Shown here: positions 634 to 49,490 of the stretch, in pieces
Layout of the letters: each line of letters starts with the position of its first letter
Numbering within the stretch: the stretch's first letter is position 1
Source: an uncultured Candidatus Saccharibacteria bacterium
GTDB taxonomy: Bacteria; Patescibacteriota; Minisyncoccia; Phycocordibacterales; CAIZLB01
Direction of reading: 5' to 3'
DNA: 64,000 nt
Assembly: GCA_964607805.1 (NCBI GenBank)
Contig: CAZSLF010000001.1
Location: 12,811-76,810 of the forward strand
The notes under the pieces: model-generated
Told to the model about the DNA's origin: nothing
The model's database searches: none
Seen by the model: only the letters and a program-made list of their open reading frames with translations
Position numbers and translations under genes: made by a program

Positions 634-714
634 GAGTCTGATTTATATTCAAATTATACCACATTTATATCTCCAGCACTTGAATCAGCTAGTTATTCCA
701 AAATAGCTCGAATT

Positions 715-840
715 GGCGGGCCCACGAGGACTCGGTCACGAGTTAAAATTGCTGCGCAATTTTCCTCTCGACCCCGCCTCCTCGTTTTGCTTCGTCGCTT
801 TGCTCCTCTTTGCAAAGCTTCGTCCGGCTTTCTCGTCCCA
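715..840 (-). repeat. tRNA-linked structured element, copy E1 (downstream of tRNA-Trp)
   Basis: Shares ordered blocks with 3036-3147. In RNA sense these are GAGAAAGCCGGAC, a variable hairpin (797-803/812-818), GGAGGCGGGGUCG, and the hairpin AAAAUUGC/GCAAUUUU (745-752/756-763). It ends with a 19-nt copy (716-734) of the tRNA-Trp 3' end (898-916). Confidence 0.7.
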
Positions 841-858
841 GTATTGCCCTTAGGTAAT

Positions 859-893
859 TAAAAAAGCCCATGCATTGCATGAGCTTTTTTAAT
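859..893 (-). terminator. Hairpin flanked by A and T runs, directly after tRNA-Trp (possibly bidirectional)
   Basis: ttaaaaaagcccatgca/ttgcatgagcttttttaa is an inverted repeat with a T-run on either strand. Confidence 0.6.
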
Positions 894-898
894 TACTG

Positions 899-970
899 CG
901 GGCCCACGAGGACTCGAACCTCGAACTGCGCGTTTGGAGTGCGATGTTTTACCATTGAAACTATAGGCCC
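899..970 (-). tRNA. tRNA-Trp (anticodon CCA)
   Basis: Hand-folded cloverleaf. Acceptor GGGCCTA/TGGGCCC, D arm GTTT..AAAC, anticodon loop CTCCAAA, T arm CGAGG-TTCGAGT-CCTCG, discriminator G. The anticodon stem has only 3 Watson-Crick pairs (TCGCA/CGCGC). No encoded CCA. Confidence 0.8.
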
Positions 971-1152
971 AAATTTTCCGCTCTTCTGCCCTGATGCCAG
1001 GTATTCTTCTCTGTCCTCATTCCCCATTTTCCAAACTTAAAAACGTGTCTACTATAGCAATTTAAAGCCTAAAAATCAAAAATACCGAGCCTTTTTGAGC
1101 TATCGGTACTTTTGTGCTTTTCGCCAGTTTTTTATGCCTCTAAGGCTTAAAA

Positions 1153-1305
1153 TTACTTAGATTCAGTAAAATCTACTCGCTTTCTAAGTTTAGCGCTGTA
1201 TTTTTTAAGGACGATTTTCTTCTCTACCTTCTTCTTATTCTTTCGAGTTCGGTAGATTTCGCCGGTCTTCTTATTGACCAATTTAATTAGTTTATCCTGT
1301 GCCAT
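1153..1305 (-). CDS. rpmG: 50S ribosomal protein L33
   Basis: A 50-aa ORF below the ORF-track cutoff: MAQDKLIKLVNKKTGEIYRTRKNKKKVEKKIVLKKYSAKLRKRVDFTESK. This fits the typical L33 pattern (..Y.T.KNK......L.KY......V.F.E.K). A hairpin plus T-run lies downstream at about 1081-1115. Confidence 0.85.
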   Translation of the reverse strand: MAQDKLIKLVNKKTGEIYRTRKNKKKVEKKIVLKKYSAKLRKRVDFTESK

Positions 1306-1350
1306 GGTGGCTATACTACCATATTTAGTTGTTTTGGCAAATGATAGTTA

Positions 1351-1381
1351 TTGACAAAATGCAAAATTGTGACACTATACA
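1351..1381 (+). promoter_or_regulatory. Sigma70-like promoter for the 1447 cassette
   Basis: TTGACA at 1351-1356 and an A/T-rich -10 candidate (ACTATA/TATACA) 17-19 nt downstream. Confidence 0.45.
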
Positions 1382-1446
1382 AATGGCTCTTTTCAACCAT
1401 TCAGAACGCTAGACACATTCAGTAAACTCTAACCACATATACGATC

Positions 1447-1812
1447 ATGAATACTATCTACGGAATCTATCAAGTGCTAGGTGGAGACCAGGCTACCCCT
1501 AAAATGCCCGGGTGGATGATTCTCTTCTTCATTTGCCTACTTATTAGCACGAGCAGACTATGCGCTGCGTGCTTCCTGGATGCAGCATCGATCAAACGAA
1601 ACACTTGGCTAACACGTTCGCTGGCCTTGCCAGCAGCGCTCGGGTTTATGTCATCTCTCTGTATACACGGGCTTGCTGCCTCGATGTTCCTTACATTGGT
1701 GTTGCTTCCGAGTGCAGGCGCTCCAATTGGAGCAGTCTTGCCGACATGTCTGTTTGGGATATTGAGCAATGCTATCTTCGTATCCAGGTTCTTTCGAGGC
1801 GTTTACGCCTAA
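1447..1812 (+). CDS. Hypothetical small membrane protein (GC-richer cassette)
   Basis: 121-aa ORF with several hydrophobic segments, bracketed by a promoter (1351) and a terminator (1839). Overlapping ORFs in other frames probably reflect local GC richness. See findings for the coding-versus-RNA ambiguity. Confidence 0.5.
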   Translation: MNTIYGIYQVLGGDQATPKMPGWMILFFICLLISTSRLCAACFLDAASIKRNTWLTRSLALPAALGFMSSLCIHGLAASMFLTLVLLPSAGAPIGAVLPTCLFGILSNAIFVSRFFRGVYA

Positions 1813-1838
1813 CTTATTACTCATTTTCATGAGTGCGA

Positions 1839-1873
1839 GCTCCGACCTGATTGGTTGGGGCTTTTTTATTTTT
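1839..1873 (+). terminator. Rho-independent terminator
   Basis: Stem gctccgacc (1839-1847) / ggttggggc (1853-1861) followed by ttttttattttt. Confidence 0.7.
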
Positions 1874-1882
1874 AAAATTTTC

Positions 1883-1910
1883 TTGACATACCCTACTTCC
1901 AATATATAGT
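1883..1910 (+). promoter_or_regulatory. Sigma70-like promoter for the 1948 gene
   Basis: TTGACA at 1883-1888, 16-nt spacer, TATAGT at 1905-1910. Confidence 0.45.
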
Positions 1911-1947
1911 TGCAGGAAAGTTCATAAACAACTATCCCCCCATTTTC

Positions 1948-2265
1948 ATGAAAAATCTAAAAGGAAATAAAAAGAGAGGAACGCACTCGACGGCTATTGA
2001 ATTAGCGGAGCGACTGGTTTTGATGATTCAGAAGAATACTTTGATAACAGGAGTTCAACTTGGGCAGATTAAGACTGGTGCGAAGGCAAATGGAATTCAT
2101 CGCATAAAAATTGAGAAGACAAGTATTGGATTTAAGTTGCAAATTAAGGAAGGACAAGCGGTGCAGATTGTGTATATTTATACGAAAGATTTTGAGGAAG
2201 TTTCTAAGGTGATTTCTGAAGCAGCGAAGGAGTTGCATGCGGAAGTTGTTTTGAGGAATGGGTAG
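1948..2265 (+). CDS. Hypothetical protein
   Basis: 105-aa ORF with its own promoter-like signal. No recognisable motif. Confidence 0.55.
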   Translation: MKNLKGNKKRGTHSTAIELAERLVLMIQKNTLITGVQLGQIKTGAKANGIHRIKIEKTSIGFKLQIKEGQAVQIVYIYTKDFEEVSKVISEAAKELHAEVVLRNG

Positions 2266-2402
2266 GTGTGGGATTTTAGATTAATGGCAACCCTTGAGCT
2301 CTTGCCAAATATACAATTCAATGTTACTTTCTCTGAGGTTAAGGTTCCCTACACCTCACAAAGTATGGCTGAGCTATCAGTGAATAGCTACCAGAACATC
2401 CA

Positions 2403-2693
2403 ATGGCTAATGAAATTGTGGCTGCAAATCGTATGCAGAAAAAAGAAATACTGAAGCGTCTCAAAGAGCTGCAGGTTGGTACCGTCGTTCGATTCCAAGG
2501 AACGTCATACGAGCAAGCGATCACCAGCGAAGAGTGTCAATTCTACATGATCTACGCGATTCAGCCTGCGCCGGCTGCCGGAAGAGTACGACTCGTCTCG
2601 CTTGACGGCAAATTGGCTATCGAGCGCGATGATTCGCACTTGGTGCACGCTCACAATGTCATGTTTCAAATCGAACCGTGCGCCAGTGAGTGA
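2403..2693 (+). CDS. Hypothetical protein (GC-richer cassette)
   Basis: 96-aa ORF followed by a strong terminator at 2713-2737. No recognisable motif. Confidence 0.55.
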   Translation: MANEIVAANRMQKKEILKRLKELQVGTVVRFQGTSYEQAITSEECQFYMIYAIQPAPAAGRVRLVSLDGKLAIERDDSHLVHAHNVMFQIEPCASE

Positions 2694-2712
2694 AAATGGC
2701 TATGCCATACGG

Positions 2713-2737
2713 GACCCCAAAGGTTGGGGTCTTTTTT
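2713..2737 (+). terminator. Rho-independent terminator
   Basis: GACCCCAA (2713-2720) / TTGGGGTC (2724-2731) followed by TTTTTT. Confidence 0.8.
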
Positions 2738-2744
2738 GTTATCC

Positions 2745-3020
2745 TTATATTCCAGCAAAATAAGTTACATAAACAGCAATAACAAAAAGAAAAATAGCAA
2801 ACACCAGAGGAAACCATAGAAAATACATAAATATTTTATGGTTATATTTTATGGCTATTAACATAAACCAGATAATTGTACCGAACACTAAAGCAAAAAA
2901 TATTGATCCGTAAATATTATTATTGTTAATATTCTTATTCAAACCAAAAATATCAGTCATATATGCGAAAGCAATGACACCAAGTGAGGCTGGTTTAATG
3001 TAGTCTAAAAATATTTTCAT
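2745..3020 (-). CDS. Small integral membrane protein
   Basis: ORF 2745..3128 trimmed to the internal start MKIFLDYIKPASLG (ATG at complement 3018-3020). The longer N-terminus would read through repeat element E2. Three hydrophobic segments; AT-rich. Confidence 0.6.
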   Translation of the reverse strand: MKIFLDYIKPASLGVIAFAYMTDIFGLNKNINNNNIYGSIFFALVFGTIIWFMLIAIKYNHKIFMYFLWFPLVFAIFLFVIAVYVTYFAGI

Positions 3021-3035
3021 GATTTTATTATATAT

Positions 3036-3147
3036 GGCGAGCAGGATTCGGTCACGCGTTAAAATTGCGATGCAATTTTCCGCGCGACCCCGCCTCCCAG
3101 ATTGCACTTCGCTTCGCTCACTGCGCAATCTGGTCCGGCTTTCTCAT
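3036..3147 (-). repeat. tRNA-linked structured element, copy E2 (downstream of tRNA-Tyr)
   Basis: Same block order as E1: GAGAAAGCCGGAC, hairpin CCAGAUUGC/GCAAUCUGG (3097-3105/3125-3133), GGAGGCGGGGUCG, and hairpin AAAAUUGC/GCAAUUUU (3061-3068/3072-3079). It ends with a 12-nt copy (3039-3050) of tRNA-Tyr T-arm sequence (3215-3226). Confidence 0.7.
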
Positions 3148-3161
3148 CAACTCAATACAGC

Positions 3162-3207
3162 AAAAAATTAAGACCTACATACTGTTGTATGTAGGTCTTA
3201 ATTTTTT
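3162..3207 (-). terminator. Long perfect hairpin with flanking A and T runs after tRNA-Tyr
   Basis: aaaaaattaagacctacata ctgt tgtatgtaggtcttaatttttt. Confidence 0.65.
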
Positions 3208-3208
3208 G

Positions 3209-3292
3209 TGCGTAGAGCAGGATTCGAACCTGCGTAGCCCAATGGGCGATTGATTTACAGTCAATTGCGATTGACCACTCCGCCATCTACGC
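3209..3292 (-). tRNA. tRNA-Tyr (anticodon GTA), long variable arm
   Basis: Hand fold. Acceptor GCGTAGA/TCTACGC, anticodon arm ATTGA-CTGTAAA-TCAAT, variable arm CGCCCATTGGGCTAC, T arm GCAGG-TTCGAAT-CCTGC, discriminator A. No encoded CCA. Confidence 0.9.
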
Positions 3293-3394
3293 ATAACCGA
3301 CTAAGTAGGCAAATCGGAGCAATTAGCTTTCGAATAACCCACCGGCCTCGGAACGGAAGCTATCCTAACATTTTTTTAAGCCACTGAAAAGGCT

Positions 3395-4118: not shown

Positions 4119-7100
4119 TTATCGCACTTTTGAGGTTTTTGGTTTTGAATTTGTCTTGACTACATCAAGGTTGTCAATATTGCTGTCTGAGTCATTGTCA
4201 ATATTATTTTCATCTTCACTTGGATTATTTGTTGCACCAGAGTTTGCGCCAATATTTTGGTTTCCACTAGCGTTGCCGTTGCCATGACTAATTAACTTTT
4301 TACCTTTCTTAACTTCGAAAATAAATTCAACTGGACTCTGAGATCCACCCTCTCGAGAGTAGCTAGCTCGAAGATCTGCAAATGTATTAACGCCAAATTC
4401 CATAGACTTGATAGGTGACTTAATTTTGCCAGAATTTTCGGCTGATGATTTGTCGCCTTTTCCATCGGAACCCTTACCCTCCTTTCCATTCTTCCCTTCC
4501 TTTCCGTTTTTCTTCACGCTAACAGAAACTGTCCCACCCTTAAGAACTCCTTCAGAAATTATGAGGGATGCCATCGGTGTCAAAATTTTGTTTTGAATCA
4601 AACGCTTGAGAGGACGTGCACCATAGTGAGGATCGTATCCTTCCTTCGCAAGATATGTAAGCACGTCTTCAGAAAGTTCAAGTGTAATTTCTTTTTCACT
4701 AAGTCTTGCTCGAACTTTTTGCAACTCAATATCAACAATATTTCTAATTGCTTCAGGACTTAGGATATCAAAGAGAACAATTTCATCGATTCGGTTCAAG
4801 AATTCAGGACGGAAATGATCTCGCAAAGCCTCCATAACTTTCTGCTTTGAGTTTTCATAGTTTTCTTTGTCGCGAGCGTTGCCATCTACACCCTTCAACT
4901 CATCTGCATCGGCGCCGACATTAGCATTGAAGCCAATTGATTGCATACGATCGATAAATTGTGCACCAATATTAGAAGTCATTATGATAATGGTGTTCTT
5001 GAAATTAATTGTTCGTCCCTTTGAATCTGTAAGACGACCGTTGTCCAAAACCTGAAGAAGGATATTGAAAATCTCCGGATGAGCTTTCTCAATTTCATCG
5101 AAAAGAATTACTGAATATGGTCTATGTTTTACAGTTTCAGTTAGAGATCCGCTGTCCTCATGGCCAACATATCCTGGTGGGGCACCAATTATCTTAGATA
5201 CTGCATGTTTTTCCATATACTCAGACATATCTACACGAATTAGTGCCTTCTCATCGTCGAACATGAATTTCGCAAGAGATTTTGTAAGCTCAGTTTTTCC
5301 AACTCCAGTTGGTCCAAGGAATATGAAAGATCCGATTGGTCTATTTGGATCGTTAATACCAGCACGTGATCGCTTAATTGTATCTGCAACTTTAGCAACT
5401 GCAGCATCTTGTCCAAGAATTGATTTCTTTAGATCTTCTTCAATTCGTGCCAACTTCTGAACCTCTTCTTCGAGCATCCGAGTAACTGGAATTCCAGTCC
5501 ATCGCGCAACAATTGTTGCAATATCATGCTCTGTAATTTCTTCTTTCAAAATTCTTCTTGAACTTTGTAGTTTTTTAAGTCTCTTTGTTTTGTTTTCCAA
5601 ATCTTTTTCAAGAGCAGGCAATTTTACATATCGAATTTCCGCAGCTTTTGATAAATCGGCATGTGCCTCCGCCCGATCTGCATCTAATCGCAAAGTCTCT
5701 AATTGCTTTTTGATATTTTTAATATCTGAAAGAGTTTCCTTTTCATTTATCCACTTAGCTTCTACTTCTGCGGTCTTCTGCTTAAGATCTGCAATTTGAG
5801 TCTCGATTTCTTTAATTCGAGTCTTTGTATTTTTATTTGTCTCAGACTCTTTCTTAAGCGCTTCACGCTCAATTTCAAGACGCATAACTTTTCGATGTAC
5901 ATCTTCAAGCTCTGGTGGTTTGTTTTCAAGTGCAATTTTAAGAGAAGATGCTGCTTCGTCGATCAAGTCCACTGCCTTATCTGGCAAAAATCTATCGCTA
6001 ATATATCGACTAGACAAAGAAACCGCTGCAATTATCGCATCGTCTGTAATTCGAACACCGTGATATAGCTCATATTTTTCTTTAAGTCCTCGCAAAATTG
6101 CTACAGCATCTTCAGTTGAAGGTTCTTGAACGTATACTGGTTGAAATCGTCGCTGTAGCGCTGGATCCTTTTCAATATGTTTCTGATATTCCTTTAGAGT
6201 TGTTGCACCAATTGCACGTAACTCGCCACGGGCTAACGCAGGCTTTAGCATATTTGAAGCATCGAGTGATCCTTCTGCAGCACCAGCACCTACAATTGTA
6301 TGAATTTCATCGATAAATAGAATAACTTTACCATCCGACTTCTCAATTTCTTTTAAAATATTCTTCAAACGCTCCTCAAATTCTCCACGATATTTAGTTC
6401 CAGCAATTAAAATTCCAAGATCGAGAGAAACAAGCTCTTTTTCTTTAAGAGATTCAGGAATATCACCCATTGCAATACGATTCGCCAATCCTTCTGCAAT
6501 TGCAGTCTTTCCAACACCTGCTTCACCAATTAATATTGGATTATTTTTAGTTCTTCGAGAAAGAATCTGAATTACACGATTAATTTCTGAATCACGACCG
6601 ATAACAGGATCTAATTTATTTTCACGAGCAAGAGCAGTAAGATTGCGAGTATATTTGACAATGGCCTTCATCTTTTTACTCCCCGTATTTTCAGCAGTTG
6701 GCTTTGCCGCTTTCAATTCAGAAATAGTTTCAGCAATTGCGCCCCGCTCCAATTTAAATTTTTGAGATAAAAGCTCACGCCCCGAGCTCGCAACGTCAAA
6801 GAATGCCAAGAACATATGTTCCACTGATACAAAATCATCTTTCAAAGTAGCCGCAACACGCGCCGATGTTTCAATAATCTGAGCAAGCTCAGGTGTAAGA
6901 TATAACTGGTATGAAGGTGACAAAGTCTGTCCGCCTTCACCTGTCTCAATAGCCTCCAAAACAGTGTCTGTGAGTAAAATAGTATCCACCTCAAGCTTAT
7001 CAAGCACAGAAAGCACCAAACTATCCTCCTGAACTAGCAAAGCAGTCAAAAGATGCAGAGGATTGACGTTGTTCTGTCCCCTTTCTATGGCTAATTCATG

Positions 7101-7154
7101 GGCTTTTTTAATCGCTTCTTTAGCTTTTGTCGTAAAATGGCTTAGTGGTGGCAT
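4119..7154 (-). CDS. clpB: ATP-dependent chaperone ClpB with a long low-complexity C-terminal extension
   Basis: Clp N-domain, NBD1 Walker A GEAGVGKT and Walker B ILFIDEIH, a long coiled-coil middle domain, NBD2 GPTGVGKT / [10 protein letters not shown], and sensor-2 GARPLKR. At 1011 aa it is about 150 aa longer than typical ClpB. Confidence 0.95.
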
Positions 7155-7816: not shown

Positions 7817-10039
7817 TTACTTATTACCAGAAGATTGTTCGAGCACGGCCTCACTCACCTTCTCCGCAATATTCCCTATATCCACCGTCGTAGTAAATCG
7901 TCCAAGTGAAATTCGAAGAGAACTCAACGCACAATTTGATCTTCCAAGAGCTTCGATAACATAAGAAGATGCATCTTCGTTCGTAGCGCGACAACTTGTA
8001 ACAGATGAAAGTTCAATTCCTAAAACATCGAGACGTAAAACTAGGAACTCTGCGTCAATTCCTGGGAAACAAATATTTAAATTATTAGGAAGTCTTTCTT
8101 CGAGAGTTCCATTTACCTTAATTCCTAAAACTTTATCTTGCAATTTACTCATAAGCATCTCAAGCAAAGTATCGCGGAACTCCAAAAGTTTTGCTGACTG
8201 ATCTTCCCTTTCGTTATGAGCTATATCGAGAGCATGCTTAAGACCAATAATTGCAGGGATATTTTCAGTTCCTGGCCGAAGACTACTTTCTTGATTGCCA
8301 CCTAGGAAAATTGGTGACAAATGAACATGTCGGCGTTTTACAAGCGCACCAACACCTCGTGGACCATAGACTTTTCCTCCATCAATAGTCATAAGATCAA
8401 TATTCAAAGTCATAATACGCATATCCTCATAAAGTGCTGCCTGACAAGCGTCTGTGTGGATATATGGATATCCAGTTCCCTCTCTTCCAAGACTTTTCTT
8501 AAAATGCCGCACTTCTCGCGCAATTTCTTTTAGCGGCTGAACGGTTCCAATTTCATTGTTCGCATAAATAATTGATATAAGAACAGTTTCTTCTCGCAAA
8601 ACTTTTTTAATATCTTTTGGATCTACTAGCCCATCTTCATTTACAGGAATAAAAGAAACATCTATACCTTTATTTATAAAATCAAGAGCGATTTCAATTA
8701 TAGAAGGATGTTCAATTGTAGAAATGATAAAGTGCGGACGAACTTTTTGTGGCTTATCGCCATTTTTCAATTTCTTTTCTAAAAGTTTATCACCTTCTGT
8801 CGTGCTACCTCTATCCACAAAACCTTTGAGAATCCCCTGAAAGACTAGATTATTTGTTTCAGTTCCTCCGGATGTGAAGAAAATTTCATTTTTATTTGCT
8901 CCGAAAAAAGCGGCCACTGACATGCGCGCATCCTCAAGAGCCTTTTTGGCCTGCACACCCTTCTTATATAGAGAAGATGGATTTGCCGGGAACTGATCCA
9001 TGGCCTCAAACATCACTTTTTTTACTCGAGGATCGATTGGAGTAAGTGAAGCATAGTCGGCGTATACGGGAGAGCTTAAGGGTTGGCCTGCAGTATTTGG
9101 TGCCAGCTGCGCTGTTGGAGTCGAAGTTTTAGTTGAAGGGAGAATGACAGAAGCTGGCGACACAGCTCCAGCAACTCTAGGAAAACTTTCCAAAATTTTT
9201 GGTTTTATGGCAGCGGCTGCAACGGCGGCTTCTGAAATTGCAGGCGGAACATCTTTGTCAAAATCCTCAGCAAACTTTTCTTCATCATGATGCAAATCCT
9301 GCAAATTTTTCTTGCGTCCTCGTCGAAAAGCTTCAAGTGCTGATTTAAAAATGTTTTTTGATTCTGTTGCTGGCGAGGGTTTTGGATCTTCTTTATGTTC
9401 GGGTAGCGCATTGTCAAATTCCTGATAATCAAATAAAACTGAATTTTCGTCTCTCTTTTCTTCATTTTCTAAATGAGACTCAGTCGCAATTAGAATCTCG
9501 TCTAACTTCTGAGCTAAATTTACTTTTTCTTCATCTTTTTCAGATTTCTCTGGAATTTCTGTCTCAATTTCCTTGACCTCCGCAATTTCTACTACACTTT
9601 CTTCAATTATTTTATTATGAATTTCGGTTTTTTCTGTTTTAGTTTGTTCTTCATTATCATCACCTACCTGAGCACTATTTTTAACACCTTTCAGTTTTTC
9701 TGAAAGTGAAGGTCGCCTATTGATATTCTTGTTTTCGCTTTTGTTTTCTCCGTCAAAACCTGTACTGGCGATCGCACCTTTCGAAAAACTTTTGCCAATA
9801 CCATTACTTAGACCATTACTCAAACCTTTACTAGTTTCAACAATTTTAGAATTTATTTGAGAAAATGAAGTTGTCAGAGAAGACTTAGCTTTTTCAGTTG
9901 CGCCTGTCACTTTCTTTTGAACTTTCTCCACAGAATTTCGAAAAGACTTAAAAGACTTCGATTCTTCCTTATCAATTGATTTTTTAAGTGCCCCAACAAT
10001 ATTTGAGGTCTTTTTAAGAAAATTTGAATCAAATTTCAT
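7817..10039 (-). CDS. Cysteine desulfurase (class V aminotransferase, IscS/NifS-like) with ~330-aa low-complexity N-terminal extension
   Basis: C-terminal ~400 aa carry the family pattern: YADYASLTPIDPRV, FTSGGTETNNLV, STIEHPSI, HTDACQA, GGNQESSLRPGTENIPAIIGL, and the active-site Cys region SSVTSCRA. Start taken at MKFDSNF (10039). The alternative upstream ATG at 10087 lies in an atypically GC-rich stretch. Confidence 0.85.
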   Translation of the reverse strand: MKFDSNFLKKTSNIVGALKKSIDKEESKSFKSFRNSVEKVQKKVTGATEKAKSSLTTSFSQINSKIVETSKGLSNGLSNGIGKSFSKGAIASTGFDGENKSENKNINRRPSLSEKLKGVKNSAQVGDDNEEQTKTEKTEIHNKIIEESVVEIAEVKEIETEIPEKSEKDEEKVNLAQKLDEILIATESHLENEEKRDENSVLFDYQEFDNALPEHKEDPKPSPATESKNIFKSALEAFRRGRKKNLQDLHHDEEKFAEDFDKDVPPAISEAAVAAAAIKPKILESFPRVAGAVSPASVILPSTKTSTPTAQLAPNTAGQPLSSPVYADYASLTPIDPRVKKVMFEAMDQFPANPSSLYKKGVQAKKALEDARMSVAAFFGANKNEIFFTSGGTETNNLVFQGILKGFVDRGSTTEGDKLLEKKLKNGDKPQKVRPHFIISTIEHPSIIEIALDFINKGIDVSFIPVNEDGLVDPKDIKKVLREETVLISIIYANNEIGTVQPLKEIAREVRHFKKSLGREGTGYPYIHTDACQAALYEDMRIMTLNIDLMTIDGGKVYGPRGVGALVKRRHVHLSPIFLGGNQESSLRPGTENIPAIIGLKHALDIAHNEREDQSAKLLEFRDTLLEMLMSKLQDKVLGIKVNGTLEERLPNNLNICFPGIDAEFLVLRLDVLGIELSSVTSCRATNEDASSYVIEALGRSNCALSSLRISLGRFTTTVDIGNIAEKVSEAVLEQSSGNK

Positions 10040-10150
10040 GTGGGTGTGGGGGTGGTCTTGCCGGCGCTTTGGGCGGGCCTCGGGCATAAATTAGTGCCTA
10101 GGCTATGGCGCCACTATACAAAAAAAAGAGCAATCTGTATACTTTGGAGC

Positions 10151-10666
10151 ATGAATATCGCAACTTCGTTCTCCGCCCTTTTTTCTTCATATCCATTTAA
10201 CCTAATTTTCACAATTTTTGTCGCAATCGCGCTAATCGTGTCAATTGTTTCTCTCATTATTTCTTTGAGGGCAAAAAATCGCATTTCTCAATTATTAAAT
10301 GGAAAAAATTCTAAAGATATTGATGAAGTGCTTATGCGCATTTATAAAAATATTTCTTCGCTGGATCAATTTCGCACAAAAATTCTTGCCGACATATCTG
10401 TGATGAATACAAAAATTTCTCGATCGGCGCAGAGTATCGAAACTGTACGATTTAATCCTTTCAAAGGTACTGGATCTGGTGGAAATCAAAGTTTTGCTAC
10501 TGCAATTTTAAATGAAAATGGTGACGGCGTAATTCTTTCAAGTTTATATTCAAGCGATCGAGTTAGTATTTTTGCAAAACCAATTTTGAAATTAGAGTCA
10601 ACATATGAATTAACTGAAGAAGAAATTCAGGCTCTGCATGCAGCTGCGACAAAATTAGGGCTCTAA
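10151..10666 (+). CDS. DUF4446-like membrane protein
   Basis: ORF trimmed to MNIATSF (ATG 10151). N-terminal TM helix; VRFNPFKGTGSGGNQSFATAILNENGDGVILSSLYSSDRVSIFAKPI...LTEEEIQAL matches my recollection of the DUF4446 pattern. Confidence 0.6.
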   Translation: MNIATSFSALFSSYPFNLIFTIFVAIALIVSIVSLIISLRAKNRISQLLNGKNSKDIDEVLMRIYKNISSLDQFRTKILADISVMNTKISRSAQSIETVRFNPFKGTGSGGNQSFATAILNENGDGVILSSLYSSDRVSIFAKPILKLESTYELTEEEIQALHAAATKLGL

Positions 10667-10760
10667 TTTTTGCGACTTTGCGATAATTCAAGCAAAAGGG
10701 CTTAGGCTAAGGCGCTCCTCATTGCTAAATGGCAAAAAATGATGTACATTCTATTGACAT

Positions 10761-12395
10761 ATGGCGTCATCCTCTGTTAAAACTTCACCCAAAAAACCTT
10801 TATCTGAGCCTTCGGATGCGGTTTCTGCACATCAGGGTGAAGGTCCTCGTGCACCAGTTGTTGTAGTTATGGGTCATATTGACCATGGAAAATCGACTCT
10901 TCTAGATTATATTCGAAGTACAAATATTGTAGATCGTGAAGTAGGTGGAATTACTCAACGTATGTCTGCATATGAAGTCGTGCATGATCAGGAAGGCATA
11001 AAAAAGCATATAACTTTTCTTGACACGCCAGGACATGAAAGTTTCAACGCTATGCGAGCTCGTGGTGCACTTGCTGCTGATATTGCAATTCTAATTGTTT
11101 CTGCTGAAGATGGTGTTAAGCCTCAAACTTTGGATGCATTCAATGCAATTAAAGTAGCTCGTCTTCCCTACATAGTTGGAATTAGTAAAATCGACAAACC
11201 AAACGCTTCAGTTGATCGTGTAAAACTTTCTCTGGCTGAAAATGAAATTTATGTTGAAGGATATGGTGGAGATATTCCATTTGTTCCCTTTTCAGGAAAA
11301 TCAGGTGAAGGTATAAACGATCTTTTAGACATGATTCTTTTAACTTCAGAAGTTGAAGGGTTCTCTGCAAATCCTGCTGAAGCCGCTGAGTGTATGGTTA
11401 TTGAATCTAATCAGGACAAGATTCGTGGTATTTCCGCTACTTTGATTATTAAAAATGGAACTCTCAACACTGGCGATGTTCTAGTTTCAGGAAGTGCAAT
11501 CTCCACAGTTCGAATTCTTGAGAATTTCCTTGGCAAACCAATTAAATCCGCTGGTCCGTCTACGCCGGTTAGAGTTGTTGGGTGGTCGGAGGCACCTGAA
11601 GTTGGAGGTCTTTGCTTTACATTCAAGAACAAGAAGGAAGCTGAAGAATTTGTATTAACTGAAAAAAATAGAATTGCTGAAGAAAGTTTGAAGAGTAGAA
11701 GTGTAAATGGTAACGGCACTAACGGCGGCAATGGTATGGGCGGAGGCACTAATATGGGAGGTATTGCAAAAGATGAGAATGGCGAAGAGATAGCCATTGT
11801 CCCAATTGTTCTAAAAGGAGATACAAATGGAACTCTTGAAGCAGTAAAATATGAAATTCAAAAACTAAAAATTGAACGTGTAATTTTGAAAACTGTTCAA
11901 GCTAGTGTTGGTGATATTAGTGAAAACGATGTAAAGCTTGCCTCAGGAAAAGCCGGAACAATAATTGTTGGATTTAATACAAAAGTTGATAATTCTGCAA
12001 AATCTTTAGCCCTTCGAACGGGGGTGCATATTGAAACATTTGATATCATTTACAAATTGACAGAATGGCTTGAAATTAAAGCAAAAGAATATACTCCTAA
12101 GCGACACGTCGAAGAAGAGAAAGGAACGCTTAAGGTTTTGAAAATTTTCAGTACAAATCGTGACAAACAAGTAATTGGAGGTCGTGTTGAAATCGGAACT
12201 GTTTCTCTTCACGATGAAGTAAAAATTATGCGACGCGAAAGCGAGATTGGAAAAGGACGAATCCGCGAATTGCAGCAGCAAAAAAACAAGGTTGGATCAG
12301 TGGAAGAAGGAAAAGAATGCGGACTTATGGTCGAATCAAAAATCGAATTGGCTCCTGGTGATAAATTAGTAGCATTTGAAGTTATTTTTAAGTAA
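10761..12395 (+). CDS. infB: Translation initiation factor IF-2 (short form)
   Basis: G1 [10 protein letters not shown]3 DTPGHESF, G4-like SKID; C-terminal domains. Followed by rbfA, as in many bacteria. Confidence 0.93.
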
Positions 12396-12944: not shown

Positions 12945-13006
12945 CAAAAAAAAATAAACTGGAAAATTCATCCAGAAGTGCTAGAATAGTCTCCGTATTA
13001 AACCCT

Positions 13007-14127: not shown

Positions 14128-14133
14128 ATTCAT

Positions 14134-14268
14134 GTGGTCAGGAATAATTTGTTCGTCGTCACTCACAAATTTTCCCGACCCTGACTCGCCTCTTTTTTCT
14201 ACTGAAAAAAGAGGGCTCCGTCTCGCACATGTATCGAGAAATTCAAAGCAGTTTGAATTTCTCACTCA
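14134..14268 (-). repeat. tRNA-linked structured element, copy E3 (downstream of tRNA-Lys)
   Basis: RNA sense, in order: tRNA-proximal hairpin (14226-14268); GGAGCC box; hairpin CCUCUUUUUU/AAAAAAGAGG (14189-14198/14205-14214); GAGGCGAG; closing helix GGUCG/UGACC (14176-14180/14136-14140); and hairpin GGAAAAUUUG/CAAAUU-A-UUCC (14166-14175/14141-14151). It aligns closely to E4. Confidence 0.65.
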
Positions 14269-14270
14269 TG

Positions 14271-14343
14271 TGCGCCTAGTAGGATTCGAACCTACGACCG
14301 TTCGCTTAAGAGGCGACTGCTCTACCAACTGAGCTATAAGCGC
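14271..14343 (-). tRNA. tRNA-Lys (anticodon CTT)
   Basis: Acceptor GCGCTTA/TAGGCGC, D arm GCTC..GAGC, anticodon loop CTCTTAA, T arm GTAGG-TTCGAAT-CCTAC, discriminator A. No CCA. Confidence 0.9.
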
Positions 14344-49191: not shown

Positions 49192-49263
49192 GGCCCTATC
49201 GTCTATCGGTTAGGACATCACGTTTTCAATGTGAGAAGCAGGGTTCGACTCCCTGTAGGGTCA
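49192..49263 (+). tRNA. tRNA-Glu (anticodon TTC)
   Basis: Acceptor GGCCCTA/TAGGGTC, anticodon arm TCACG-TTTTCAA-TGTGA, T arm CAGGG-TTCGACT-CCCTG, discriminator A. No CCA. Confidence 0.88.
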
Positions 49264-49309
49264 CACAAATAAAAAACACCAACCTGCGTTGGTGTTTTTT
49301 ATTTGTGTG
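49264..49309 (+). terminator. Long perfect hairpin with a T-run after tRNA-Glu
   Basis: cacacaaataaaaaacaccaac (49262-49283) / gttggtgttttttatttgtgtg (49288-49309). It overlaps the last 2 nt of the tRNA. Confidence 0.7.
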
Positions 49310-49311
49310 AC

Positions 49312-49402
49312 GGCCGGAGCCATGTTTTTTCAGCAGAAAAAACGGGCGAGGCGGTGTCGCGGAAATTTCTGAGCGACGGCGAGGAAATTATCTGTGACCA
49401 CA
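49312..49402 (+). repeat. tRNA-linked structured element, copy E4 (downstream of tRNA-Glu)
   Basis: GGCCGGAGCC box, hairpin UUUUUU/AAAAAA (49325-49330/49337-49342), GGGCGAGGCGG, helix GUCGC/GUGAC (49356-49360/49394-49398), and hairpin GGAAAUUUC/GAAAUU-A-UCU (49361-49369/49384-49393). It is nearly colinear with E3. Confidence 0.65.
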
Positions 49403-49490
49403 AAGGTATAAAGCCCATTTTTCAAACCTAAACGAAATTTAGCGTTTATTCTTCCGCCTATTTTTGAAAAGTAAAAGTTCTAAAAAATAC

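Follow-up and report, generated by a model that had tools for sequence, protein, structure and literature searches.

The stretch of DNA analyzed here (the window) comprises 64,000 nucleotides (nt) of contig CAZSLF010000001.1 from an uncultured Candidatus Saccharibacteria bacterium. It contains eight tRNA genes recognized by ARAGORN and Rfam, and four of these, namely, those for tRNA-Trp(CCA), tRNA-Tyr(GTA), tRNA-Lys(CTT) and tRNA-Glu(TTC), are followed by members of a family of structured elements, denoted E1 to E4, which probably are small mobile insertions. An initial annotation, made from the sequence alone, had reported the four copies next to these tRNA genes and in the same orientation, and ARAGORN places the genes where claimed, at 898-970 (minus strand; Trp), 3208-3292 (minus; Tyr), 14270-14343 (minus; Lys) and 49192-49264 (plus; Glu). 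The order of blocks described at the time (in the RNA sense, a GCCGGA-type box, hairpin A, a GAGGCGG box, and a closing helix GGUCG...UGACC enclosing hairpin B) is borne out by the sequence, as are the compensatory replacement of an A-U pair in the closing helix of E1 by a C-G pair in E2 and the bulged A in hairpin B. The consensus of the boxes holds for E1, E2 and E4 but not for E3, which has GACGGA, GAGUCAG and CUGACC; these deviations are compensatory, with GAC/GUC in place of GCC/GGC at the base of the helix P2 that carries hairpin A. The cores, too, are as described, but the extents assigned to them are too short for the functional unit, which also includes the 3' part of the tRNA gene, a hairpin, an antisense arm and a flanking repeat. 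The outer helix P1, formed by pairing of the 5' flank with the 3' flank, was absent from that description.

Anatomy of the four elements

All units share the same order: gene-end copy A, hairpin, antisense arm X', core, and gene-end copy B. In E1, copy A is the last 19 nt of the tRNA-Trp gene itself (898-916, from C56 of the T-loop, as delineated by ARAGORN, Rfam and sequence). On the same (minus) strand, it is followed by the hairpin GCUCAUGCAAUGCAUGGGC and a U run (860-884), a terminator-like structure that lies within the inserted block and is missing from the empty site of a relative, L126 (see below); by the arm X' (GGGC ... GGGAC GAG AAA; 829-849), which, according to the fold and to the family-wide statistics of P1, complements the 3' strands of the acceptor and T-stems; and by the core GCCGGA...GTGACC (734-828), which consists of P2 with hairpin A and P3 with hairpin B, matches the search pattern and scores 67.2 bits with the covariance model. 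After GTGAC, the sequence repeats the last 19 nt of tRNA-Trp, from C56 on: this copy B, CGAGTCCTCGTGGGCCCGC followed by CA (714-734), matches 898-916 at 19 of 19 positions (longest common substring 19, period 182).

E2 (minus strand) is built likewise. Within the tRNA-Tyr gene, positions 3215-3226 make up copy A (ARAGORN, sequence), and a long trailer hairpin with a U run, read from the sequence and again terminator-like, follows at 3162-3207. Next come a degenerate X' with an AAA junction (3140-3160; sequence and fold), the conserved core (3050-3139; pattern match, 75.6 bits), and copy B, CGAATCCTGCTC (3036-3050), which is identical at 12 of 12 positions to the T-loop and T-stem of tRNA-Tyr, the remainder being decayed (GCCA). 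In both of these copies, which we call type I, the repeat starts from C56; in E3 and E4 (type II), it starts from the discriminator or trailer. Copy A of E3 (minus strand) is the end of tRNA-Lys with its trailer, CACATGA (14266-14272; ARAGORN, sequence); a hairpin with a CUGC loop, which recurs across the family (14236-14263), and the antisense arm CAUGUGCG (14224-14231), both from sequence and fold, occupy 14224-14263; and the core with its GAC/GUC P2 base (14136-14222; 63.1 bits) is followed by a copy B of 7 nt, CACATGA (14130-14136). In E4 (plus strand), a fold-back hairpin (49260-49311) pairs a 24-nt arm, made of the tRNA end GTCA and the trailer, perfectly with a 24-nt antisense arm across a CTGC loop; folded as DNA, 49262-49408 yields a z-score of -8.8. 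The core (49313-49399; pattern match, 72.8 bits) adjoins a copy B of 6 nt, CACAAA (49399-49404), identical to 49264-49269. The repeats of E3 and E4 are so short that each is weak evidence by itself.

Within the window, the combined pattern has 3 matches where 0 are expected, and the covariance model built from 71 family members finds E1 to E4, with E-values of 1e-21 to 1e-25, and nothing else at E<=1. Compared with dinucleotide shuffles, each copy folds with a z-score of -4.6 to -7.0 under RNA parameters and -3.9 to -6.4 under DNA parameters.

Several features of the window touch on these elements. The sequence GGAAAATT, with which hairpin B starts in E1-E3, also occurs directly 5' of tRNA-Trp (972-979, minus) and in the gap between tRNA-Cys and tRNA-Leu (12961-12968, plus), and has 14 matches in the window against about 8 expected. 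Among the eight tRNA genes (ends at 898, 3208, 12945, 13091, 14270, 14576, 46752 and 49264), CCA is encoded only by that for Leu(TAG); the discriminator is followed by C in 8/8 and by CA in 7/8. CCA is also encoded in the displaced tRNA-Trp end of E1 and in the tRNA-Trp gene of the L126 empty site. At 3027-3055 (minus), the conserved end GTGACC is separated by 17 nt of decayed tRNA copy from a perfect TATAAT, a promoter-like arrangement directly 5' of the ATG (3036) of a small membrane protein open reading frame (ORF), and the end of E2 may have been exapted as a -35 box. We rejected GTGACC as a family-wide -35 box: the TATAAT 17 nt on fits E2 only, not the family.

A covarying core in Patescibacteria

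We scanned one genome per species with the pattern GCCGGA-N-GAGGCGGNGTCG-N-GTGACC, which yielded at least 120 loci. Of those listed, about half are chance matches in GC-rich coding sequence; the 66 others come from DNA of less than 60% G+C, resembling that of the Candidate Phyla Radiation (CPR), and all 66 have the same architecture. Most of the 66 come from assemblies titled Saccharibacteria, Paceibacteria, Parcubacteria, Moranbacteria, Taylorbacteria, WWE3 or 'Patescibacteria group', and the remainder from unclassified or differently labelled metagenome-assembled genomes. A scan of metagenomes added at least 110 real copies. The family is widespread in the small-genome Patescibacteria (CPR) and has so far been seen only there. 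The 2.9 million viral contigs of IMG/VR contain a single real match to the core, and the phage and plasmid collections contain none, so that we rejected a phage or plasmid origin.

An alignment of 71 copies, a set seeded with the fixed search pattern, defines the core as a three-helix junction of about 90 nt with the 5' box GCCGGA and the invariant 3' end GTGACC. Of the 21 pairs predicted by RNAalifold, 14 show compensatory changes. Across the 71 sequences, 93.9% of the cells are paired, compared with 70.5% in shuffles and 33-43% with slid partners, and the covariation score of 0.586 (0.156 in shuffles) was reached by none of 500 shuffles. Copies that were caught by the model but missed by the pattern include compensatory variants of the P2 base (GCC/GGC, GGC/GCC, GAC/GUC, ACC/GGU, AGC/GCU) and of the P3 base (GGUCG/UGACC replaced by GGCUG/UAGCC). 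The outer helix P1 is 70% paired, compared with 50% in shuffles, with a covariation score of 0.518 vs 0.204, and its duplex energies are better than those of mismatched-locus controls (p 5e-11; p 8e-6 for copies with flanks other than the T-loop). The earlier contention that structure is kept while the sequence varies is upheld, and the element appears to act as a single strand. This strand has the sense of the tRNA, given that the G-U pairs would be A-C on the opposite one.

Rfam has no match for the core, which the initial annotation had been unable to place in an RNA class. In the window, Rfam 15 reports tRNAs only at the gathering threshold; with the threshold relaxed to E<=10 over 650-3300, the cores of E1 and E2 are touched, at their 5' part, only by chance-level matches to sX4 and sR18, with scores far below gathering, and the other weak matches fall on tRNAs or the terminator hairpin. 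A known RNA family was therefore rejected. The lengths and sequences of the joints, compared by eye, misfit the hammerhead, hepatitis delta virus (HDV) and K-turn junctions, in agreement with Rfam. We also rejected a kissing interaction of the upstream hairpin, through its CUGC loop, with a GCAG loop in hairpin A: it fits E3, E4 and L073, but the CUGC loop has no consistent partner in a table of loops from 69 copies. Neither Rfam nor the literature searched, including searches with literal sequence strings, contains a description of the element, which apparently is undescribed. One further locus, L129, carries a divergent element after tRNA-Tyr (4559-4730, plus) with the P2 base AGG/CCU, a short P3 and the end AAGGAC|CGAATCC; the model missed it, and the family is therefore broader than the model and the search pattern.

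The form of the core raises the possibility of a retroelement or ribozyme-based element that spreads through an RNA intermediate. Under one version of this scenario, the core would be a new self-cleaving or self-ligating ribozyme for which the flanking target, in P1, sets the cut site, much as flanking target sequence defines the cut site of R2-type HDV-like ribozymes; under another, the element would be a retron-like unit, with P1 corresponding to a2/a1, P2 to msr and P3 to msd, and the reverse transcriptase would be encoded elsewhere. Such origins would be compatible with the three-way junction and its conserved purine-rich joints (GAAA, GGA/GA, GG), the bulged A, an invariant G-U four pairs in from the junction, a P1 made of flanking target sequence, and a repeat length that varies as in target-primed events. 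The resemblance to retron non-coding RNAs, as these are generally described, is architectural only. However, Rfam returns no ribozyme, intron or retron-related match even at E<=10, no reverse transcriptase adjoins any copy, and terminators lie upstream of the core. Furthermore, the units carry genomic trailers instead of a post-transcriptionally added CCA, so that mature tRNA was not the template. We therefore regard an RNA intermediate as improbable.

Direct repeats, antisense arms and an empty site

Right behind GTGACC, the 3' part of the upstream gene is repeated in direct orientation, either from C56 of the T-loop or from the discriminator or trailer onward, and an antisense copy of the repeated segment, located on the 5' side of the core, pairs with this segment. 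Among the 66 genomic loci, 40 have a same-strand ARAGORN tRNA just upstream, with many different anticodons; at about 20 of these, the 3' flank reproduces the tRNA exactly from C56 to its end, with 'CA' or 'CCA' added (19-27 nt), and at others, the copy is partly decayed. When all model matches are considered, 61 of the 129 tRNAs in the sampled loci are accompanied by an element, and a tRNA lies directly upstream of 59 of 93 elements. The proposed link to tRNA loci holds but is not the simple co-location of an RNA gene; it probably arose through insertion into the 3' part of tRNA genes, by which that part was duplicated. For 42 of 87 elements, compared with 1 of 258 mismatched-locus controls, the flank shares a repeat of at least 12 nt with the 400 nt upstream; these repeats begin with the last C of GTGACC, and the unit period is 124-201 nt. 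Of the metagenomic copies, 56 of at least 110 have such repeats, with a period of 119-280 nt. Overall, the flanking repeats span 6-58 nt and the guide arm 7-34 nt, and besides non-tRNA sites the targets include at least 15 types of tRNA, with different bases 5' of the insertion points (GGTT, GTCA, GCGCA, GGGA).

Where the two gene-end copies differ, copy B retains only the first 7-11 nt, and the better partner of X' is copy A, which is the real tRNA end, in 7 of the 9 cases (one is a tie and one a mis-registered row). This fits a long stem in which the arm pairs with the carried gene end, closed by a small loop on one side and bordered by the core on the other, as well as arms that start out exact and decay later.

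The ClpB protein of the window assigns it to the Paceibacteria/Parcubacteria, and four loci from relatives (83-84% ClpB identity) were fetched through ClpB. In the window, the ClpB homologue (4119-7154, minus) has a low-complexity C-terminal extension of about 130 amino acids (aa), rich in G, K, S and N, and the closest relatives (83-88% identity, 934-977 aa) suggest that its length is variable. The window, L128 and L129 have an element at tRNA-Trp, and L126 has none there. The gene for ribosomal protein L33 (rpmG; 1153-1305, minus) lies just upstream of tRNA-Trp, and the order is the same in L126, which makes an empty-site comparison possible. The end of the L126 tRNA-Trp gene matches the downstream copy B and its flank in the window (...GGGCCCGCCAATTAGAGCTAG vs GGGCCCGCCAATTCGAGCTA; ...GTGGGCCCGCCAATTAGAGCTAGT vs GTGGGCCCGCCAATTCGAGCTATT) and is unlike the element-side trailer of copy A; the functional copy A runs on into an unrelated trailer and the terminator hairpin. 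Copy B and its flank also match the distal end in L128, where the same original tRNA-Trp flank lies beyond two insertion layers. To judge from these sequences, copy B of E1 is the displaced original end of tRNA-Trp with its CCA, and the simplest reading is that the element brought its own tRNA end and terminator, pushing the original CCA-bearing end downstream. The copies at tRNA-Tyr and tRNA-Lys are common to the window, L126 and L128, with recognizably similar cores; the hairpins between tRNA and arm show no sequence similarity, although a hairpin is kept (E2 orthologues). In L126, the tRNA-Tyr arm is a perfect 34-nt complement of the tRNA end, the trailer and the terminator stem, whereas in the window and L128 the arms of the tRNA-Tyr copies are decayed.

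The targets are not confined to tRNA genes. In L008 and L045, the element lies in the 3' end of topA (738-aa ORF), with a repeat of up to 33 nt: the upstream copy supplies an alternative C-terminus, a stop codon and a hairpin, and the downstream copy holds the former C-terminal coding end, which has diverged. The core of L054 has on its flanks a 42-nt stretch with a terminator in it. The initial annotation had held that copies with neither a tRNA link nor covariation would count against a functional element; copies without a tRNA link exist, yet these, too, covary strongly. Diverged units in tandem are found in L007, L049 and L055, and layered remnants of insertions in L128. At the start of a 1.3-kb metagenomic contig (L197, 1-300), two tandem units have 100% identical cores and a period of 171 nt, which could reflect a very recent duplication or a concatemer. 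In L012 (3087-3230, plus), a short element whose hairpin A is just GCGCGACGGCGC is followed by the 3' half of another hairpin B, GTGACC and a T-arm copy, which looks like one element inserted into or beside another. A Saccharibacteria subtype (L016, L027, L050 and probably L068) has a mirror-like arrangement of a tRNA 5' fragment, a GCCAGUGGC hairpin, the core, the decayed rest of the tRNA, and an intact tRNA. The 5' fragment (acceptor and D-arm, or up to the anticodon loop) is 100% identical to the start of the downstream tRNA, and the interrupted copy is a decayed pseudogene beside the intact gene. The scaffold of L068 has a gap directly after the element.

Proposed mobility, search for a mobilizing enzyme and comparison with known systems

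What has to be explained, then, is a family of gene-less units with a covarying single-strand structure, flanking repeats and replacement gene ends, an empty site in a relative, tandem and nested copies, and insertions at targets other than tRNA genes. Our preferred explanation, which we consider probable rather than secure, is that E1-E4 are small insertion elements without genes of their own, for which a folded single strand is the mobile form and an enzyme acts in trans. Each block comprises (a) a substitute for the 3' part of the target gene, (b) a hairpin, often terminator-like, (c) the antisense arm X', complementary to the gene end, and (d) the core of two covarying hairpins, P2 and P3, ending in GTGACC, with the displaced original gene end directly after it. 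Because a replacement end is carried and the original end displaced, the block is bounded by direct repeats and the tRNA is left intact. The element presumably moves, or moved, as a folded single strand, possibly of DNA; X' would pair with the target copy next to the core, which would put the point of breakage and joining at the P3/P1 boundary (GTGACC|), and the trans-acting enzyme would recognize the core. Excision between the repeats would release a rod- or tRNA-shaped molecule of about 120-280 nt, perhaps circular. More tentatively, and with less than even confidence, we suggest a new class of mobile elements that choose the target through the built-in antisense arm, with a core that either recruits a host or other trans-acting enzyme or is itself catalytic and with strand exchange where the arm pairs. 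If this were the case, retargeting by swapping the arm together with the carried gene end would account for the presence of one family on at least 15 tRNA types, topA and terminators across the phylum.

A number of observations weigh against mobility as proposed here. We found no enzyme able to move the element and observed no excised or circular form; repeats that reach 12 nt are undetectable in about half of the copies, and E3 and E4 have repeats of just 6-7 nt. The empty site of L126 could result from a secondary loss by recombination between repeats and not be ancestral. Cores at the same tRNA maintain their structure through compensatory changes (GAC/GUC in E3, GGC/GCC in L126, GCC/GGC in L046), which fits a function kept in place, for example, as RNA, unless the copies are younger than their hosts. 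Finally, G-U pairs in P3, one of them invariant at its base and another frequent (29 of 71 copies), would be G-T mismatches if the element were DNA.

Some of these points are what would be expected of a host-serving, cis-acting RNA module on tRNA genes that spreads only by local duplication and gene conversion. Read-through from the tRNA would produce a three-way junction, tRNA-like in type I (an acceptor-like helix, a T-stem-like P1 and the CUGC hairpin), which could serve in processing, termination or stability, or as a decoy for a tRNA-binding factor. The strong covariation with G-U pairs at fixed places, the constant orientation along the tRNA, the compensatory upkeep of same-tRNA copies in relatives, the capacity of the type I arm to form acceptor-like and T-stem-like helices (L107, L071), and the G+C content of the model matches (0.44-0.56 in a window with 39% G+C, typical of structured RNAs) are all in line with such a role. 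Nevertheless, a terminator-like hairpin with a U run separates the tRNA from the core in E1, E2 and E4, and the trailers of the two repeat copies are wholly different, so that simple local duplication is not an explanation. The targets include the coding end of topA and bare terminators; half of the tRNAs lack the element, and its presence varies between relatives; the better fit of X' to the real tRNA end would, as RNA pairing, misfold the tRNA; RNA-typical tetraloops are rare; and no family in Rfam matches. On balance, we find a cis-acting RNA unlikely.

The active form may be RNA or single-stranded DNA. The 365 hairpin tips predicted for 180 distinct copies include 122 triloops, 61 of these being C-GNA-G, and of the 192 tetraloops, 13 are GNRA and 1 is UNCG. 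Minihairpins of the d(GCGNAGC) type are exceptionally stable in DNA, and natural RNA tetraloops are dominated by GNRA and UNCG; these predicted loops, together with the good folding of the copies under DNA parameters, hint at a single-stranded DNA form.

The search for a mobilizing enzyme covered the interior and the surroundings of the units. No gene lies inside the repeat-bounded units, apart from the two loci described next, and the neighbors of the four window copies are unrelated. No protein family recurs next to the element in 67 loci: the commonest cluster, which is housekeeping, is found in 6 of the 67, and recurrent neighbors were rejected as partners. Among the 98 repeat-bounded units (119-280 nt), genes between the repeats were found in two loci only. 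In L117 (1-1710), 1.66 kb between the 19-nt repeats of a tRNA-Asp element encode a stand-alone 87-aa GIY-YIG nuclease and two ORFs of no assigned function, and a decayed copy of the tRNA end in the middle suggests two successive insertions; being present at this single locus, the nuclease was rejected as the partner. In L243, the repeats are 5.4 kb apart and enclose a large serine recombinase. Recombinases of this kind (about 590-620 aa), on Parcubacteria-type contigs, were observed in L243 (7303-12812) and L250-L253 (about 10001-11900), with the 3' end of the recombinase gene overlapping that of tRNA-Val or tRNA-Gly at a conserved junction, ...CCAG(N)A(N)(N)AGATTT(C/G)TGCCC(C/G)GAAC; these loci are probably small integrated islands. 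The islands of L250-L253, four relatives of the L243 recombinase that abut tRNA 3' ends, have no core and no long repeat (one unrelated partial core match is located at the edge of L250, outside the island). The serine recombinase was accordingly rejected as the mobilizer, and L243 is a mini-element later split by an unrelated island.

The same loci bear on the idea that the elements are scars of larger integrative elements or prophages, that is, fused attL-attR sites with the interior deleted and the core as the attP arm. Repeats of tRNA 3' ends with restoration of the gene are, as generally known, what integrase islands leave behind, and the genes in L117 and L243 could be taken for a surviving interior. 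However, independent deletions are unlikely to have produced the same endpoints in 98 units of which only two contain genes; the L243 island is a serine-recombinase element at the very 3' end of the tRNA, with relatives that lack the core; the core is all but missing from the viral, phage and plasmid sequences; and intra-strand covariation is not expected of a double-stranded att arm. We consider scars a highly improbable explanation.

Patescibacteria account for a large share of bacterial diversity, have genomes of about 1 Mb and had been regarded as poor in mobile elements; half of the tRNA genes in the window carry an element despite this presumed scarcity. Harmless insertion into essential genes would be achieved at about 120-280 nt, far below the size of integrase-bearing elements, and if the arm directs insertion, this would be a naturally retargetable system with an enzyme still to be found. 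On the practical side, displaced tRNA ends and tRNA-like folds can mislead the annotation of tRNAs and pseudogenes, the repeats may break assemblies (as at the gap in L068), and the presence or absence of copies provides strain-level markers in lineages that are hard to culture.

The nearest known systems are tRNA-integrating islands in behavior and, in form, attC sites, the attP of CTX phage and HUH hairpin elements, but the element falls outside the definition of each of them. Islands and prophages with tyrosine integrases, as Williams reportedly described in 2002, occupy tRNA genes at sublocations in the T-loop, the anticodon loop and the 3' end. The elements share with them insertion in the T-loop or the 3' end of the tRNA (in one Saccharibacteria subtype, in the D-arm or anticodon loop), a replacement gene end with the displaced original as a direct repeat, tandem accretion, and occasional use of the 3' ends of protein genes. 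In contrast, the units of 119-280 nt have no integrase or, as a rule, any other gene between the repeats, the core covaries as a single strand and is accompanied by an antisense copy of the target, and the range of tRNA types together with the non-tRNA sites goes beyond a single sequence-specific integrase.

With integron attC sites and the attP(+) of CTX phage, which is recombined by XerCD, the family shares the primacy of structure over sequence, a single active strand, a conserved unpaired base, and a recombination point at the edge of the fold; the arrangement of target copy, folded site and target copy is reminiscent of a cassette array. Unlike these sites, the element has no R''/R' (RYYYAAC/GTTRRRY) or dif-like boxes, forms a three-helix junction instead of a single imperfect hairpin, and has a junction stem that copies the target rather than a fixed protein site. 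There is, moreover, no intI or integron platform at the element, and the copies follow tRNA genes with no recurrent neighbor in 67 loci. The single-stranded DNA elements of HUH enzymes (IS200/IS605 with PATE, REP/REPIN with RAYT) are similarly small, gene-less, hairpin-rich and strand-specific, reside at gene 3' ends and terminators, and rely on an internal guide that pairs over a short stretch with the cleavage site or the target; however, they make no direct repeats at their flanks and depend on tetra- or pentanucleotide targets or a 5' GTAG, whereas here the guide arm and the repeats are far from fixed in length, and no TnpA or RAYT was seen near the copies.

Miniature inverted-repeat transposable elements likewise are short, non-autonomous, multi-copy and structured, but the present element has no terminal inverted repeats (a tRNA 3' copy forms the left end and GTGACC the right end, with the X/X' inverted repeat internal), its duplication is of variable length, and it carries a functional replacement of the gene end. 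The closing of P2 and P3 by P1 resembles the a2/a1, msr and msd of retrons in architecture only. The tRNA-like RNAs (the tmRNA domain, YrlA, and viral tRNA-like structures) have helices akin to the acceptor-like and T-stem-like ones of type I, but in the element these are copies of the neighboring tRNA made by insertion, and no tmRNA or viral-type tRNA-like structure was called. Group I introns occur in the tRNA genes of Patescibacteria (PMC13011429), which are known hosts of intervening RNAs; in comparison, the core described here is far smaller, matches no Rfam intron and leaves the upstream tRNA uninterrupted.

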